This document shows, one piece after another, positions 15,947 to 23,646 of a stretch of 52,566 nt of DNA. The notes beneath the pieces are model-generated. The model made no database searches. It was given only the letters and a program-made list of their open reading frames with translations, and was not told the origin of the DNA. Each line of letters begins with the position of its first letter. Position 1 is the stretch's first letter. Both the position numbers and the translations under genes were made by a program. Source of the stretch: Patescibacteria group bacterium (GTDB lineage Bacteria > Patescibacteriota > Minisyncoccia > UBA6257 > 02-FULL-45-10c); contig JAGWYA010000001.1 in the NCBI GenBank assembly GCA_018969615.1, positions 1-52,566 on the forward strand, in the 5' to 3' direction.

Positions 15947-16652
15947 AAATATCATCGTTTTCGACCATGTCGGCAAGGTGTTCGAGCCGGCCGGCGACGT
16001 GGCGCTCCGCGACGTCAGTTTTTCCGTGCGGCAAGGGGAGTTAGTGTCGCTGATCGGCGGCTCCGGCTGCGGGAAGTCGACAGTGCTGAAGATCATCGCC
16101 GGGCTCACCGAACCGTCCTCGGGCAGCGTGACGAAACCCGGCAAGGTTTCCATGGTGTTCCAGGCGGGCGCGCTGTTCCCGTGGCTGAGCGTGCTGGATA
16201 ACGTCGCTATCGCGCTGGAGGCGAAGGGCGCGGCGAAGGAGCACGCCCGGAAGGAAAGTTTGAAATATCTCGAAATGGTCCGGCTTGGCGATTTCATCGG
16301 GAAGTTTCCGCGGGAGCTGTCCGGCGGCCAGCGCCAGCGCGTCGGCATCGCCCGGGCGTTGAGCGTTGATCCGGAAGTGCTGCTCCTCGACGAGCCGTTT
16401 GCCGCGCTGGATCAGAAGACCGTCGACGAAATGCACCAGGACCTGCTGCGGATCTGGAAGGAAACCGGGACGACTATTATTCTGGTGTCGCATCTGATCG
16501 CCGAAGCGGTTGCGCTGTCGGAGCGGGTACTGCTGATGAAAGCCGGGGTGATCGCGGGGGAATTTCCGATCACGATCCCGCGTCCGCGCCGGGAACAGGG
16601 GGCTGAGTTTTCGGCCGAGGTCATGAAGATTCGCCGGGAGTTCTTTAAATAG
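15921..16652 (+). CDS. NitT/TauT-type ABC transporter ATP-binding protein
   Basis: GGSGCGKST, LFPWLSV, LSGGQRQR, LDEPFAALD. Confidence 0.92.
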   Translation: MPNGTNSIKNIIVFDHVGKVFEPAGDVALRDVSFSVRQGELVSLIGGSGCGKSTVLKIIAGLTEPSSGSVTKPGKVSMVFQAGALFPWLSVLDNVAIALEAKGAAKEHARKESLKYLEMVRLGDFIGKFPRELSGGQRQRVGIARALSVDPEVLLLDEPFAALDQKTVDEMHQDLLRIWKETGTTIILVSHLIAEAVALSERVLLMKAGVIAGEFPITIPRPRREQGAEFSAEVMKIRREFFK

Positions 16653-16718
16653 ACCTTTGCTTTCAAGCCTCGTTTTGCTAGAGTAGGGAAGTATTTCATT
16701 GGGAGATCGTCTAACTTG

Positions 16719-17095
16719 CCCCGCCAAACTGTACGCAGTATGGAATGCTATTTATACATACTTAAAAATGATTGGAATAGGTACTATACTGGTATTACAG
16801 AATTGGCGCCGCAAAAGAGGTTAGTGAAGCATAATAGAGGTGATGTTTTTTCAACAAAATTTGGAAGGCCATGGCAGATCGTCTATGTTGAGAAACATGT
16901 TGATATGGCATCTGCGCGCAAGCGCGAGAAGCAGATCAAAAGTTGGCATGGCGGAGAAACTTTAAAAAGATTTCTAGGCAAAGCTGCGGGATCGTCTAAT
17001 GGTAGGACATCGGCCTTTGGAGCCGAGTATCTTGGTTCGAATCCAAGTCCCGCAGCTTTGCCCGGAAAGAAAGGATCTAAGTTTGGCGGGGTGAA
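16719..17095 (+). mobile_element. ~377-bp insertion in the tRNA-Gln D-loop bounded by inverted repeats
   Basis: CCCCGCCAAACT (16719-16730) / AGTTTGGCGGGG (17080-17091); exact ends uncertain by ~3 nt. Confidence 0.8.
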
Positions 17096-17099
17096 GTAG
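16740..17099 (+). CDS. GIY-YIG nuclease family protein (119 aa)
   Basis: YLYIL..YYTG, R..KHN, W.IVYVE, A.KREKQIKSW; ATG 16740. Confidence 0.9.
   Translation: MECYLYILKNDWNRYYTGITELAPQKRLVKHNRGDVFSTKFGRPWQIVYVEKHVDMASARKREKQIKSWHGGETLKRFLGKAAGSSNGRTSAFGAEYLGSNPSPAALPGKKGSKFGGVK
16985..17055 (+). tRNA. Intact tRNA-Gln(TTG) nested in the insertion and in the GIY-YIG reading frame
   Basis: TGCGGGA/TCCCGCA acceptor with G73, GTCT-AATGGTA-GGAC D arm, TCGGC-CTTTGGA-GCCGA, CTTGG-TTCGAAT-CCAAG. Confidence 0.93.
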
Positions 17100-17200
17100 G
17101 ACAGCGGCCTTTGAAGCCGTCAATCATGGTTCGAATCCATGTCTCCCTAGCAAATTTGAAGTAGTTTCGAACGTCGAAGAGCTTCTAAAAATTACTTATT

Positions 17201-17878
17201 ATGGGAAAATATTCGGTTGATGACTTAAAAAAGATGATTCCAGGAGTGTCAGAAGAAAAATTTCTTGTAGTTATTTCAAAAGGAGTTTTAAAACTGAACG
17301 ACGAAGAAATAAATACTATAACTTTTGTTTTCTTTCTTTGTTTATTAGCAGAGCTTAATATGGGCGCAGTTCTAACTGAGCCCTGGAAGCAGATAGAAAA
17401 TATTTCTTCTTTTGAAAAAGTAAAAGAAGCAAAAAAGTTATTAAACGAATTTATAACTGATAAAAAATTTACTGAACCACCATTAGACGAAGTTCTTAAG
17501 GGTTTACCAAATGAAATTGCATCAAAAATTCGCGCAGTTGTTATCGACCGCTATCGAGATAAGTCAATACTTGATATGGATAATCTAAATACATTTGGTG
17601 ATAAAATACTAGCGTATCAAGCTATTAAATCAAAAAATAATGTTACAAAAATTCTTTGGATATTAAAAGGAATGCGAGATGATATAAGTCATGGCAGAAT
17701 TATGGAATTAAAATACGAAGGTCAATTGCTTGTTAATAGAAAAGTAAAAGAGAAGCTCCTTATTGATTACATGGAAGCTTTTAGTAATCCAGACCATACC
17801 AAGTCTAATTTAAGCAGTCATTTACAGTTTACAGAAGAGGAACATAGAGAGATACAAAGATTGCTTGGGATGTTATAG
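17201..17878 (+). CDS. AT-rich hypothetical protein with HEPN-like RxxxxH motif
   Basis: Helical protein, TFGDKI...MRDDISHG; markedly more AT-rich than its neighbours. Confidence 0.7.
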   Translation: MGKYSVDDLKKMIPGVSEEKFLVVISKGVLKLNDEEINTITFVFFLCLLAELNMGAVLTEPWKQIENISSFEKVKEAKKLLNEFITDKKFTEPPLDEVLKGLPNEIASKIRAVVIDRYRDKSILDMDNLNTFGDKILAYQAIKSKNNVTKILWILKGMRDDISHGRIMELKYEGQLLVNRKVKEKLLIDYMEAFSNPDHTKSNLSSHLQFTEEEHREIQRLLGML

Positions 17879-18026
17879 ATTTTTAATCTCAAGTTATAGT
17901 CTTATTATAAGTCGACCGAGGTAACTCGATCAGGTGGGGCAAGTTTGAATTAGTATGGTACCGGCAGATTTTTATTCAATAGAAAATAGTTGTATAATTA
18001 TAGTAAATATTATCTTTATAAAATTT

Positions 18027-18479
18027 ATGACAACAATTCTTTTGGTGGGTATCGCGGGGGCGGTCATTAGTGCGATTACCGGAACGCTTTGGTATTCGAA
18101 CGCAACTCCTATGGGGAGGTGGCATATGCAATACCTTGGTTTTGACCGATTATCGAATGAAGAGAAGGAAAAAATGATCGCCGACGCAAAGCCGAGGATG
18201 TGGAAAAGCTATTCCGCGCAAATGCTCCTTTCGTTTCTCACTTCCTTTTTTATCGCGTTCGTGACGAGCTATACCGTTCAGAACGGCGGACCGGCGAGCG
18301 CTGTCTTTTTTTATGTTCCGATGATCTGGATCGCGTTTACGGTGCCGGTGATCGGACAGAATATCCTGTGGGGGAGATCTAAGGGAAGCCTTGCATGGAA
18401 AAGATTCATCTCCGAAAGTTCCTACAACTTGATCACGTTTCTTATCATCGCTTCCGTAGCGGCTGCGGTGATCAAATAG
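18027..18479 (+). CDS. DUF1761-like 4-TM membrane protein
   Basis: GTLWYS...G.W motif and 4 TM helices; start revised to 18027. Confidence 0.7.
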   Translation: MTTILLVGIAGAVISAITGTLWYSNATPMGRWHMQYLGFDRLSNEEKEKMIADAKPRMWKSYSAQMLLSFLTSFFIAFVTSYTVQNGGPASAVFFYVPMIWIAFTVPVIGQNILWGRSKGSLAWKRFISESSYNLITFLIIASVAAAVIK

Positions 18480-18553
18480 AGGTTTTTTAGATCCGATACT
18501 CAGTGTGATATTAATTTGGGACGAAAGTTATCCGAGAAGGACGATTTTTACAT

Positions 18554-19115: not shown

Positions 19116-20582
19116 ATGGCGAAGACGTCCCAGCATCAGCACATTGATCTTCAGGAGATCGCGCGGCAGGTTATGCGGGCGCGGGGGTTCGATCCGGATT
19201 TCCCTCCTCAGGTTCGCCGTCAGGTAAAGGGATTAAAAGCGCATGCATCGCGGGTTTCGCCGAATGTAGACATCCAAGATCTGCGCAAGCTTCCGTGGTC
19301 TTCAATCGACAATGACACATCGCGTGATCTGGACCAGATCGAAGTGGCTGAGCGATCGCGGAATGGCGATGTGAAAGTCAGGGTTGCGATCGCTGATCTC
19401 GATGTGTTCGTGGGCAAAGAGACGCCGATTGACGCTTACGCCGGCTTTGAGACCACGACGGTCTATGCGGGCGTCACAAATTTTCCGATGCTTCCGGAAG
19501 AGCTCTGTTACGATGCGTCTTCGCTGGTCGAGAATGCCGACCGGTTTGCGATCGTGACTGAGTTCGTTGTCCGGTCTGACGGCACGCTCCGTTCCGGAGA
19601 TATTTATCGCGCGATCGTGCGGAATCATGCTCAGCTGACCTATGTCGCCGTGGGAAGGTGGCTTGAAGGAAAGGGACCGGTCCCGCCGAAGGCGAGCTCG
19701 CCGGCCATCCAGGCTCAGTTGAAGCTGCAGGATGCGGTTGCACAAAAACTGAAGCAGCGGCGCTATGAGCAGGGCGCGCTTTATGTGGAATCGATCGAGA
19801 TCAGTCCGGTGTTCCAGCGAAATAAGATCGTTGATATTGTGAACCAGGAAAAGAGCCGCGCGACTGATCTTATCGAAGATTTTATGATCGCCGCGAACGG
19901 CGTTGTCGCTCGCAGATTGGAAGGGGTCTCTTCGATCCGCCGCGTAGTAAAAACGCCGCAACGCTGGGACCGAATCGTGAGCCTTGCCGCCGCTAACGGC
20001 AGCAAGCTTCCCGCCGCTCCCTCAAGCAAAGCGCTGAACCAATTCTTGTTAAAACGGAAAGCCGCCGACCCTGATCATTTTGCCGATCTTTCGTTGGCGG
20101 TGATCAAGCTGATCGGCCGGGGAGAATATGTCTTAGAACAAAAAGGAGGAAAGCGGCAGGGGCATTTTGGGCTTGCAGTGCAGGATTATGCGCACTCCAC
20201 CGCACCGAACCGCCGCTTCGCCGATATGGTGACGCAGCGGCTGATCAAAGCGATGCTTGCCGGTAATCCCGCTCCGTATACGGATAGTGAACTTGCTGCG
20301 ATCGCCCAGGACTGCACATTGAAAGAAGACCAGGCGAATCGCGTTGAGCGTGATATGTCAAAGCGGATCGCCGCGGTCGCGATGAGCCGGAGGATCGGCG
20401 AGGTTTTCAGCGCCGTGGTCACCGGCGTGAAGCCGCAGGGAACGTTCGTGCGCATCCTTCATCCTCACGTGGAGGGCATGTTGGTACAAGGCGGGGCAAG
20501 GCTTGATGTCGGCGATCGGTTGCAGGTGAAGCTGGTGCATACCGATATCGCGCGGGGATACATCGATTTTGCGGCGGTATAA
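19116..20582 (+). CDS. RNB-domain exoribonuclease (RNase II/R family) with C-terminal S1
   Basis: SIDNDTSRDLDQ, LIEDFMIAAN, HFGLA..DYAHSTAPNRRFAD. Confidence 0.9.
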   Translation: MAKTSQHQHIDLQEIARQVMRARGFDPDFPPQVRRQVKGLKAHASRVSPNVDIQDLRKLPWSSIDNDTSRDLDQIEVAERSRNGDVKVRVAIADLDVFVGKETPIDAYAGFETTTVYAGVTNFPMLPEELCYDASSLVENADRFAIVTEFVVRSDGTLRSGDIYRAIVRNHAQLTYVAVGRWLEGKGPVPPKASSPAIQAQLKLQDAVAQKLKQRRYEQGALYVESIEISPVFQRNKIVDIVNQEKSRATDLIEDFMIAANGVVARRLEGVSSIRRVVKTPQRWDRIVSLAAANGSKLPAAPSSKALNQFLLKRKAADPDHFADLSLAVIKLIGRGEYVLEQKGGKRQGHFGLAVQDYAHSTAPNRRFADMVTQRLIKAMLAGNPAPYTDSELAAIAQDCTLKEDQANRVERDMSKRIAAVAMSRRIGEVFSAVVTGVKPQGTFVRILHPHVEGMLVQGGARLDVGDRLQVKLVHTDIARGYIDFAAV

Positions 20583-20627
20583 GTTAGCACTCCGGTCCCA
20601 TGACGGACGTTGTAAGGATATGATACG

Positions 20628-21212
20628 ATGTTATTTATGGATGCACTTATTTTCGATAAAACAAAGACGGCATTAGTGGTGATCGATCTCCAGAAAGGGA
20701 TCGTGAACCGGAATGTCGGGCCGCATACCTCGGCTGAGGTGGTAAAGAATGCGGCGTCGCTCGCCGACGTATTCCGGAAGAATGCCATGCCGGTGTTTTT
20801 GGTTCGTGTCACGCCTTCGTTTGACCGGAAAGATGCGTTGCATCCTGATGCGGACGCGCCGATGCCGGCGCATATGCCTCCGGCGGATTGGGCGGAGATC
20901 GTTCCCGAGATGGGACCGAAGGAAGGCGACTTTATCATCACCAAGCGTCAGTGGGGTGCATTTTATGGGACCGAGCTGGATCTCCAGATGCGCCGGCGCG
21001 GGATCACGACGATCGTGCTGTGCGGGATCTCGACGAACATCGGCGTTGAAAGCACGGCGCGAGCGGCGTACGAGCTTGGGTATCATCAGGTCTTCGCCGA
21101 AGATGCGACCGCGGCGTTATCCGCCGAAGAGCATTCTTTCACCATGGCGCATATCTTTCCGCGCATGGGCAAAGTTCGTTCCACGGCGGATATTCTAACG
21201 GCCATTCACTAA
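20628..21212 (+). CDS. Isochorismatase/cysteine hydrolase family protein
   Basis: ALVVIDLQKG, KRQWGAFYGT, GISTNIGVESTAR. Confidence 0.9.
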   Translation: MLFMDALIFDKTKTALVVIDLQKGIVNRNVGPHTSAEVVKNAASLADVFRKNAMPVFLVRVTPSFDRKDALHPDADAPMPAHMPPADWAEIVPEMGPKEGDFIITKRQWGAFYGTELDLQMRRRGITTIVLCGISTNIGVESTARAAYELGYHQVFAEDATAALSAEEHSFTMAHIFPRMGKVRSTADILTAIH

Positions 21213-22365: not shown

Positions 22366-23646
22366 TTAGGCCTTGTTGATCACGACCTTCTCGACCGTGA
22401 ATACTTCGCCCAGGTTATAGCGGCTTGAAAAGCTGACGTCCTTGCTGTTGATGAAGTACGGATCGCGCATGATATACCCGTTCGCGTCGCGGCCGGTCAG
22501 GACGATAAAGTGCGTTCCGCCGAAGACGTTCAGGCCGAGGATCACCGGATTGCCGGTTGCAAGCGTTGCATTAATGGTCGCGCCGACCCGGGATGCGGTG
22601 ACGCCGTCCACATTGATGGTATAGAGAAGATAGGCCGGATAATAGGATGCGAAATTGTTCGGATCGGCATCGATCGTCGCCGGCGTGACATCCCGGTAGC
22701 CGTAATGGGTCATGACCATCGCCATTGAGGTGACCAGGCACCCGGCGTCGGCAAGCGTATATTTTGTTCCGTTGAGCGATTGATCGCCCCACGCCGCATC
22801 GCGCTGATTGTAGTAGCATCCCCATGAATCGCAATTCGTTTGGTCGAGGAGAAGGCCTTTCGCGCCGGCGTTGGCGGCGAATGCAGAAAAGCTCGCGAGC
22901 TGCGCTTTTGCCTCAGAGAGGAGGGCTTGGTATTTTGATTCCTGACTGTTCGTTTGGACTAAGAGCTGGTCTTTGGCGCTTTTATTTGCGACGAGGTCGG
23001 CCTGCTGATTGATCAGGGCCTGTTTTTGATAGGAGAGCGTTGCCTGTTTTTGTTTGCTTGCCGTCTGGGAGTCCGCAAGCTGCGTGCCGAGGTTTTGCAG
23101 GGTCTGTACTTTGTTTTGGATCGCCCCCTGGATCTTGATCAATGCGTCGATGTTATTCCATGCGTCGGAAAGCGACCCCGAGATAAGGAGCTGTTCAAGC
23201 GGGGATTGCTCATCAGCTTTTTGAAGGCTGCGGATATAAACGGCGAGCGCCTGCTGATCGGTCTCGATCGTTTGCTGGGTGTCGGCGATGTCGGCGCTGT
23301 ATTGCTGGATCTGAATACTGGTGATATTGATCTGGCTTTGCGTGATGGAGATCTGAGCCTGTACCTTATTGCGCTGGATCGTCAGTGCGTTGATCGCATC
23401 CTGAAGCGTTTTTTTATCGGCGCCGATCTTGGTCAGCTGCGTTTCGTAATCGGCGATCTGCTGGTTCAGGGCCTGGACCTTCGCCGTATTCGCATCAAGC
23501 TGGCTTTGAAGCGTTGTGGTGCTCGTCGTGCTATCGGCATGAGCCTGCGGCACCTGCGGCCAGGGGGCTATACCGATGACGCCCGTGAGAATGCCGGCAA
23601 GAAGGAGCGTTATCCCGTGTTTATGCCGTTTTTGCATGCGATCCAT
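22366..23646 (-). CDS. Secreted coiled-coil protein with C-terminal C39-like peptidase domain
   Basis: Signal peptide, long coiled coil, YYNQRD..W, GCLVTSMAM, HFIVL, DP. Confidence 0.8.
   Translation of the reverse strand: MDRMQKRHKHGITLLLAGILTGVIGIAPWPQVPQAHADSTTSTTTLQSQLDANTAKVQALNQQIADYETQLTKIGADKKTLQDAINALTIQRNKVQAQISITQSQINITSIQIQQYSADIADTQQTIETDQQALAVYIRSLQKADEQSPLEQLLISGSLSDAWNNIDALIKIQGAIQNKVQTLQNLGTQLADSQTASKQKQATLSYQKQALINQQADLVANKSAKDQLLVQTNSQESKYQALLSEAKAQLASFSAFAANAGAKGLLLDQTNCDSWGCYYNQRDAAWGDQSLNGTKYTLADAGCLVTSMAMVMTHYGYRDVTPATIDADPNNFASYYPAYLLYTINVDGVTASRVGATINATLATGNPVILGLNVFGGTHFIVLTGRDANGYIMRDPYFINSKDVSFSSRYNLGEVFTVEKVVINKA

Follow-up and report, generated by a model that had tools for sequence, protein, structure and literature searches.

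A gene for a small GIY-YIG nuclease and a complete gene for a glutamine transfer RNA (tRNA-Gln) lie together between the two parts of an older tRNA-Gln gene in a Patescibacteria group bacterium (assembly GCA_018969615.1, contig JAGWYA010000001.1). The stretch analyzed, here called the window, comprises positions 1 to 52,566 of this contig, forward strand; a sequence-only reading had drawn attention to positions 16977 to 17099. We think it probable that those positions are the 3′ half of a compact selfish element of about 380 nt, a cassette that lies in the D-loop of a decayed tRNA-Gln gene and carries the GIY-YIG gene together with a replacement tRNA-Gln. The inner tRNA is enclosed by a long helix, here called the clamp, and the open reading frame (ORF) of the nuclease passes through the whole of this tRNA. 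The parts of the cassette are as follows.

16700–16714, + strand: 5′ fragment of the outer (host) tRNA-Gln (acceptor 5′ strand, positions 8–9, D-stem 5′ strand, start of the D-loop); read from the sequence, pairing with 17142–17147 in the predicted fold, and with homologous fragments at the same place in relatives
16715–16729, + strand: left inverted repeat, CTTGCCCCGCCAAAC; complementary to 17081–17096 with one bulged G, forming the closing stem in the predicted fold, and conserved in relatives
16740–17099, + strand: GIY-YIG nuclease ORF, 119 aa from ATG, including the stop TAG; from the ORF list, Pfam and an alignment of 28 full-length homologs
16971–16984, + strand: 5′ strand of the clamp helix, which also codes for F L G K A, the residues immediately preceding the tRNA; from the sequence and the homolog alignment
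16985–17055, + strand: inner, complete tRNA-Gln(UUG); from ARAGORN and Rfam (64.8 bits)
17055–17068, + strand: 3′ strand of the clamp helix, starting at the discriminator G73; from the sequence and the homolog alignment
17081–17096, + strand: right inverted repeat, GTTTGGCGGGGTGAAG; from the sequence and the predicted fold, and part of the 20-nt pattern used to search metagenomes
17097–17149, + strand: 3′ part of the outer tRNA-Gln(UUG) (D-stem 3′ strand, anticodon arm, T arm, acceptor 3′ strand), whose first triplet, TAG, is the ORF stop; from the sequence, Rfam, the alignment and the fold

A tRNA gene nested within its predecessor

The inner tRNA-Gln exceeds the Rfam tRNA threshold (29 bits) by a wide margin, and ARAGORN assigns it the anticodon TTG and a 3′ end at 17055/6. 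The outer gene is scored by Rfam over 17088–17149, at 36 bits, as a tRNA without a D-arm. Its remnant carries T72 and A73, whereas distinct cassette tRNAs carry A72 in 64/64 and G73 in 63/64 cases. The genome amounts to 807 kb in 14 contigs, is an estimated 96.6% complete and has the window as the first 52.6 kb of contig C4; among its 47 ARAGORN tRNAs, the inner gene is the only UUG isoacceptor found. On this count tRNA-Gln(UUG) matters to the host, and the two lines of evidence together mark the outer gene as a relic and the inner gene as the working copy. RNA folding of 16695–17155 (461 nt) predicts a tRNA within a tRNA at −165.4 kcal/mol (z-score −6.78; none of 100 shuffles as stable), in which the inverted repeats form a 15-bp closing stem with one bulged G.

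The open frame extends over 16716–17099, or 127 aa from a TTG, and the likely start is the ATG at 16740; its translation includes ...GKAAGSSNGRTSAFGAEYLGSNPSPAALPGKKGSKFGGVK. Pfam GIY-YIG (PF01541) matches residues 11–79 with an E-value of 1.1e-12 and 48.5 bits against a cut-off of 22.6. The catalytic domain is coded by approximately 16746–16952, and the last 38 codons (16983–17096) are set by the clamp, the tRNA and the right inverted repeat. Six residues (Y6, Y16, R27, H31, N32 and E63) are invariant in the 28 aligned homologs; we take the conserved Tyr, Tyr, Arg, His and Glu to be catalytic by analogy with the motif of I-TevI. The sequence-only reading had described a frame that passes without a stop through the inner tRNA and the right inverted repeat and ends at the TAG at 17097–17099 in the host D-arm, and we find the frame to be exactly so.

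Known types of intron were considered and rejected. Over 16400–17400, Rfam at E ≤ 1 yields just the two tRNAs and one sub-threshold small RNA match, and no group I, group II or archaeal tRNA intron. An archaeal-type intron is further disfavored by the host, a bacterium with a genome of about 0.8 Mb, and by the closing stem, a 15-bp helix with one bulged G.

Relatives of the cassette

Small GIY-YIG genes as such are nearly universal in related genomes, 96 of 101 of which give a match at E ≤ 1e-3. Close relatives of the window nuclease are patchy: at E ≤ 1e-14 they occur in 26 of 401 genomes of the order, falling in 12 listed families plus one among two unlisted, and in 0 of 4 congeners. The closest named relative is from an uncultured Saccharibacteria assembly. 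A protein scan of genome contigs gave 10 loci, of which one is close (67%, cut at a contig end).

Two sets of loci were compared. The genome set has 13 loci, including the window, which share the same layout, the read-through and clamps of 12–14 of 14 pairs (L001, L006–L008, L010, L012, L013 and L045–L050); L009, which contains a run of N, and L035 and L053, in which the contig ends inside the element, were left out. The metagenome set was obtained with the 20-nt pattern, which spans the right repeat and the host D-arm and matched 101 stretches, 80 of which were fetched. An inner tRNA-Gln lies within 130 nt upstream in 64 of these, representing 58 distinct elements: 31 intact, 5 ORF-less miniature cassettes, 12 decayed or rearranged and 10 not assessable (four reclassified by eye).

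Insertion is at the same D-loop position in the 5 fully read loci whose flanks were read. Of the 80 metagenome loci fetched, 38 contain the word of the left inverted repeat. Insertion in other subfamilies is after G19, at position 26/27 or in the T-loop. As far as sequence comparison can tell, this is the distribution of a homing-endonuclease gene: patchy, horizontally spread at one conserved target site, and with a cycle of degeneration. Hybrid inner tRNAs, and the identity of inner and outer arms in L006 and L008, are compatible with co-conversion.

The cassettes have themselves been invaded. L045 and L074 are “Russian dolls” in which a clamped tRNA carries a second cassette; in both (in L045 at about 1380–2000) the nest has three levels, with a clamped tRNA-Gln and its nuclease inside a second clamped tRNA-Gln, which in turn lies before the 3′ end of a third. 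L006, L008, L045 and L063 also have, in the anticodon loop of the dead outer tRNA, short hairpins composed solely of the two inverted repeats (CTTGCCCCGC...GCGGGGTGAAG). The triplet that they displace, TGG, is also the one displaced in the D-loop, and they resemble footprints, or miniature derivatives, of an element whose target is centred on TGG.

A split but working outer tRNA, from which the insert would be trimmed at the RNA level, was also rejected as the principal explanation. The T72/A73 of the remnant differ from the A72/G73 of the cassette tRNAs, the remnants in L006, L008, L013 and L045 carry further anticodon-loop hairpins, and the 5 pattern matches that have upstream sequence and no inner tRNA are right-end debris rather than an intact tRNA with a solo hairpin. 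Right-end debris of this kind, a right repeat with a remnant of the host D-arm, is seen in L084, L089, L098, L110 and L129, where the inner tRNA and the left part are lost; L089 also retains the 3′ clamp arm.

An uninterrupted allele was sought in two ways. Contigs from four DNA runs over 16300–17500 revealed no joints and no empty-site allele, and break at the tRNA; a search for the upstream gene in the four congeners gave short conserved-motif matches only, with no syntenic empty site. A free-standing tRNA-Gln(UUG) of a congener, located by tRNA similarity, has an encoded CCA, ordinary flanks and no cassette (flanks judged by eye; clamp not scored).

The clamp is a covarying helix

At its core the clamp has 8 pairs of perfect complementarity, GGCAAAGC (16977–16984) with GCTTTGCC (17055–17062). 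The sequence-only reading had counted these 8 pairs and a helix of 15 bp in total; the former figure stands and the latter falls short, as the helix continues to 14 positions, TTTCTAGGCAAAGC (16971–16984) with GCTTTGCCCGGAAA (17055–17068), of which 13 are paired, with one A·C mismatch and one G·U. Together with the 7-bp acceptor stem it measures about 21 bp, and the discriminator G73 is paired with C−1. By an arithmetic estimate, at least 13 of 14 pairs with G-U allowed would arise by chance about 3e-5 times per tRNA. Only 2 of the 47 tRNAs of the genome have at least 9 of 14 clamp pairs, namely the inner tRNA-Gln and a nested tRNA-Ser described below, each with 13; the other 45 have at most 8.

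The clamp was aligned in 65 tRNA segments with 18 nt on each side, 13 from the genome set and all 52 distinct rows from metagenomes, including four with poor helices. Among the 64 distinct sequences, both partners vary at 13 of the 14 pairs, and pairing is kept in 89.3% of the clamp cells. Over the structure as a whole the figure is 95.7%, against 76.0% in shuffles (0 of 500 reach the observed value), and sliding the partner strand by 1–3 columns lowers the pairing to 36–49%. In the 64 sequences the helices of the tRNA itself (acceptor, D, anticodon and T) show 100% pairing. The four poor-helix rows are derivatives whose left part has been deleted or replaced, with the 3′ arm alone surviving. 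Homologs thus keep both the open frame, as described below, and the helix, with abundant compensatory changes, where the sequence-only reading had asked whether they usually stop before the tRNA and lack the helix; the overlap is no one-off accident. The covariation shows that the clamp is a genuine helix, and the excess of G-U over A-C cells given below points to pairing in RNA, or at least on the tRNA-sense strand.

The clamp accompanies nesting

The sequence-only reading had tied the helix to expression of the nuclease, which does not apply in general. The clamp is tied to replacement tRNAs that are nested between the halves of the gene they replace, and not to the nuclease. The 5 ORF-less miniature cassettes keep 12–14 of the 14 clamp pairs. 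In the same genome, outside the window, a tRNA-Ser(UGA) on contig C5 (22995–23250) is ORF-less, lies between the 5′ fragment and the 3′ relic of an older tRNA-Ser and has a 13/14 clamp. A tRNA-Ala(CGC) in L029, nested in the anticodon loop of an older tRNA-Ala, likewise has a 13/14 clamp, and the stop of its nuclease is 28 nt upstream. GIY-YIG genes located 5′ of an intact, non-nested tRNA (Cys, Ser, Glu, Ala, Phe, Thr and Met, and the Gln cases L011 and L014) show 3–8 of 14 clamp pairs, where non-nested means that no clear 3′ host relic lies downstream, the best ungapped matches being 10–17 of 24 and not separated from background.

Several other arrangements were seen at tRNA genes of these genomes. 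The nested tRNA-Ser of contig C5 has a GC-rich palindrome (CCTGCCTGCC...) after its 5′ fragment. Contig C14 of the same genome, also outside the window, has two more small GIY-YIG genes (20507–20830 and 22832–23219), both immediately 5′ of a tRNA and in the same orientation as it. The stop of one is a TAA within the D-loop of a tRNA-Cys. The other has on one side a duplicate of the first 20 nt of a tRNA-Ser(GCU), with the same palindrome as on contig C5 after it, and on the other side the intact tRNA. The tRNA-Gln(UUG) of the congener (G001, locus L177) is found amid loose D-arm and T-arm fragments with no evident clamp and no nuclease gene, and may be an older, eroded invasion.

The nuclease frame runs through the tRNA

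All 31 intact metagenome ORFs read through the tRNA in the same frame (27 identified by script, and L062, L101, L116 and L119 by eye, the motif filter of the script being too strict). Among the clamp-bearing glutamine cassettes of the genome set, 13 of 14 do so. The exception, L051, has an intact ORF of 81 aa that ends at a TAG 17 nt before its clamped tRNA. The frame used contains no stop in any of the 58 cassette tRNAs (58/58) or of the 5 tRNA-Gln genes without a cassette (5/5), which indicates that its openness is intrinsic to tRNA-Gln; the other two frames are open in 39/58 and 0/58.

Beyond the tRNA the ORFs diverge. The 31 intact frames end at the host TAG (16), at a TGA in the right repeat (6), at a TAA 5 nt before the search pattern (6) or elsewhere (3), so that all three phases are represented in the spacer between tRNA and right repeat; past the tRNA, the tail measures 1–17 aa. 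The sequence-only reading had proposed that the stop codon exists only once the element is inserted in its target. This is true of the window and of 16 of the 31 intact metagenome ORFs; in the remaining 15 the stop lies inside the cassette. Three elements fully explain the sequence of the tail: the tRNA itself, the repeat, and the complement of the codons that specify the conserved C-terminal helix. On this sequence evidence the tRNA-encoded tail seems to be a passenger, with no sign of selection as protein.

Proposed mechanism and alternatives

The reading that we favor, and that we regard as more probable than not, combines a nested cassette, a clamp that serves the replacement tRNA, and a passenger tail. 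The most likely role of the clamp would be to force the ends of the inner tRNA together, away from the homologous halves of the outer gene with which they could otherwise pair. The clamp could possibly also be a double-stranded processing site of the RNase III type, freeing a pre-tRNA for RNase P and 3′ trimming. In the glutamine cassette the nuclease gene is packed against the tRNA, with its last five codons forming the 5′ strand of the clamp and no stop preceding the tRNA. The ORF enters the tRNA in the frame that is always open in tRNA-Gln, and a ribosome that gets there would stop at the first downstream stop, in the window the TAG of the host D-arm. Excision of the tRNA would leave the nuclease message without a stop, so that each transcript could give either the tRNA or the complete nuclease and the nuclease would be scarce.

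The sequence-only reading had suggested such an either/or outcome. Judged by the gene layout it is mechanistically reasonable, and the enzymes needed are plausibly all present, two of them as candidates. The genome encodes RNase III (PF14622, 131.7 bits) and SmpB (159.4 bits). A full-length candidate for transfer-messenger RNA (tmRNA) adjoins smpB (Rfam 40.2 bits, E 3.9e-15), and a full-length candidate for the RNase P RNA scores 86.2 bits in Rfam, each below its gathering score.

Selection might have acted on this outcome directly. The stop-less run-up and the clamp would then be kept since tRNA maturation makes the message stop-less: at each maturation of tRNA-Gln(UUG), RNase III or RNase P would cut the message upstream of any stop, the nuclease would be tagged through tmRNA and degraded, and it would accumulate only from rare unprocessed transcripts. 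The lack of any stop before the tRNA in 31/31 intact metagenome ORFs and 13/14 genome-set cassettes fits this proposal, as do the variable position of the downstream stop, expected if the stop is rarely used, the frequency with which other GIY-YIG genes paired with tRNAs stop inside the tRNA (9 inside versus 10 before), and the presence of RNase III, SmpB and the tmRNA and RNase P RNA candidates. The clamp is found, however, where there is no ORF at all, and also where the ORF already ends ahead of the tRNA (L029 and L051). About half of the relatives that are not nested have their stop 6–33 nt before the tRNA. By an arithmetic estimate, the absence of a stop from the 2–3 free codons before the tRNA has a chance expectation of about 0.87, which matches what is seen. 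We regard a selected governor of nuclease expression as possible but doubtful.

The arms of the clamp could instead be a DNA-level repeat, acting as a cruciform or hairpin for a nuclease or transposase, or as recombination ends, without being an RNA structure. Inverted repeats also delimit the cassette as a whole, these loci contain many GC-rich palindromes, and covariation alone cannot tell RNA pairing from pairing in single-stranded DNA. The distribution of imperfect pairs is informative in this respect. In the 48 distinct good clamps, the non-Watson-Crick cells are G-T or T-G in 47 cases and A-C or C-A in 17, an excess on the tRNA-sense strand that is unexpected for a duplex-DNA repeat and indicates an RNA helix, or at least pairing of the tRNA-sense strand. 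In 60 of the 64 sequences, moreover, the arms begin right at the tRNA ends and prolong the acceptor stem without a shift in register. Arm sequences also differ widely between lineages while the pairing is retained. A DNA repeat is accordingly an improbable account of the clamp.

Least probable of all, and very unlikely in our view, is that the 38-residue extension over clamp, tRNA and right repeat is a working part of the nuclease, such as a basic DNA-binding tail. In favor of it, all read-through members have the extension, K, R, G and S are abundant in it, and minimal GIY-YIG domains are not known to have a DNA-binding domain. RNA constraints, however, explain its sequence fully; its post-tRNA part ranges from 1 to 17 aa and, with respect to the right repeat, falls in three reading phases; intact nucleases that lack it are found in L051 and in the alanine cassette L029; and tRNA-Gln genes that have no cassette leave the same peptide frame open.

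Several observations weigh against the nested cassette with a clamp serving its tRNA and a passenger tail. In L063, L091/L109 and L095, which have lost the left part of the cassette, and in L064/L075, which have another nuclease gene in its place, the tRNA is without a clamp; these derivatives show that the tRNA can in some contexts do without the clamp. Coding also constrains the 5′ clamp strand, although the 3′ strand nonetheless follows it. The metagenome set was found with one fixed right-repeat sequence and represents one subfamily, so its counts overstate independence. The stop-less run-up in 31/31 and 13/14 cassettes could reflect selection for a stop-less message, 2–3 free codons being too few to separate selection from default. 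Finally, the RNase P RNA and tmRNA matches lie under the Rfam gathering scores, and ARAGORN in its tmRNA mode found none in the genome.

Surroundings of the cassette

A scan of 16500–17300 for promoters and terminators gave no terminator and a single weak promoter-like site, within the ORF, a yield not above that of shuffled sequence. No RNA run was found to cover 16600–17250. Directly 3′ of the outer tRNA relic, 17160–18500 is AT-rich (GC 0.34 in 17001–18000 versus about 0.55 elsewhere) and contains a 225-aa ORF without a Pfam match and a DUF1761 protein; this segment may be a separate insertion at the tRNA. Outside the window, at 71586–71663 of contig C4, ARAGORN calls a tRNA whose type it leaves undetermined and whose anticodon has four bases (cgcg).

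Implications and comparison with known systems

Two features appear to be new: a tRNA clamp that covaries, and the regular placement of an essential tRNA inside a nuclease ORF. The tRNA would thus be enclosed by a processing or folding helix with covarying strands, as is known for ribosomal RNA (rRNA), and an essential bacterial tRNA would lie wholly within a protein-coding frame. A homing-type nuclease could in this way enter a single-copy essential tRNA gene without killing the host, the replacement being insulated structurally from the wreck of the old gene. In the annotation of genomes of the candidate phyla radiation (CPR), the cassette would account for unusual “GIY-YIG proteins” whose tails are rich in glycine and serine, and for tRNA-Gln genes that are called as duplicated or are “missing”. 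If tRNA maturation and nuclease dosage are indeed coupled, the result would be a simple self-limiting circuit of a new kind. If, beyond that, the coupling has been selected, the host's need for a tRNA on which the selfish nuclease has made it depend would hold that nuclease in check, and the nuclease could fire mainly when tRNA processing lags.

Full-text searches of the literature collection used returned no tRNA-nested nuclease cassette, clamped tRNA or tRNA inside a bacterial ORF, which is not proof of absence in print. A parallel to the excision step is the “tRNA punctuation” of mitochondria, where ORFs abut or overlap tRNAs, excision of the tRNA sets the end of the neighboring message, and polyadenylation completes the stop codon. 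In bacteria, messages that lack a stop are handled by tmRNA-SmpB trans-translation. Unlike the mitochondrial case, the cassette has a whole tRNA inside the ORF and nothing known to restore a stop.

The clamp itself is reminiscent of rRNA operons, in which RNase III processing stalks bracket the structural RNA. It resembles these stalks, and RNase III-cleaved intervening sequences, in being a long covarying leader/trailer duplex round a structural RNA, and the genome has a gene for RNase III. By this analogy the clamp would differ from rRNA stalks in that it encloses a tRNA and has a protein-coding 5′ strand, and its cleavage is putative. We know of no tRNA bracketed by such a processing stalk. 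Intervening sequences cleaved by RNase III are described in 23S rRNA (PMC11270868). The same report, in the sections available, describes insertions in CPR rRNA genes, some of which code for GIY-YIG proteins outside recognizable introns; the word “tRNA” occurs 0 times in its main text. These insertions are like the cassette in having a Patescibacteria/CPR host, the GIY-YIG superfamily, a structural RNA as target and no ribozyme intron. Their targets are rRNA, and the sections of that report available describe no replacement copy, clamp or overlap between ORF and RNA (PMC11270868).

A nuclease of the same superfamily is associated with tRNA genes in phage T4, where SegB is a free-standing GIY-YIG homing endonuclease in a tRNA gene cluster (PMC2330249). 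SegB reportedly spreads by the cutting of alleles that lack the nuclease and the copying of the gene with flanking tRNA sequence, as the cassette may also do, and like the nuclease of the cassette it is encoded among tRNA genes. It differs in lying between intact tRNA genes, in being a larger protein and in having its own stop; it is not known to split a tRNA, to carry a clamped replacement or to overlap a tRNA.

In its logic the cassette appears, by analogy, to be closest to the elements of fungal mitochondria termed mORFs. These carry a replacement end for the gene they invade, as in atp6 of Allomyces macrogynus and atp6, atp9, cox2 and nad3 of Glomus (PMC3630166). In the available part of that account, as in the cassette, an endonuclease ORF lies in an essential gene together with a foreign copy of the displaced part, and the native part persists downstream as a relic (PMC3630166). 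The corresponding arrangement is found in the window, where 16700–16714 and 17097–17149 flank the ORF and the complete inner tRNA. The mORFs, as described there, target protein genes and give fusions of protein to protein, whereas in the cassette a whole tRNA is nested in the old one, wrapped in a helix and read through by the ORF.

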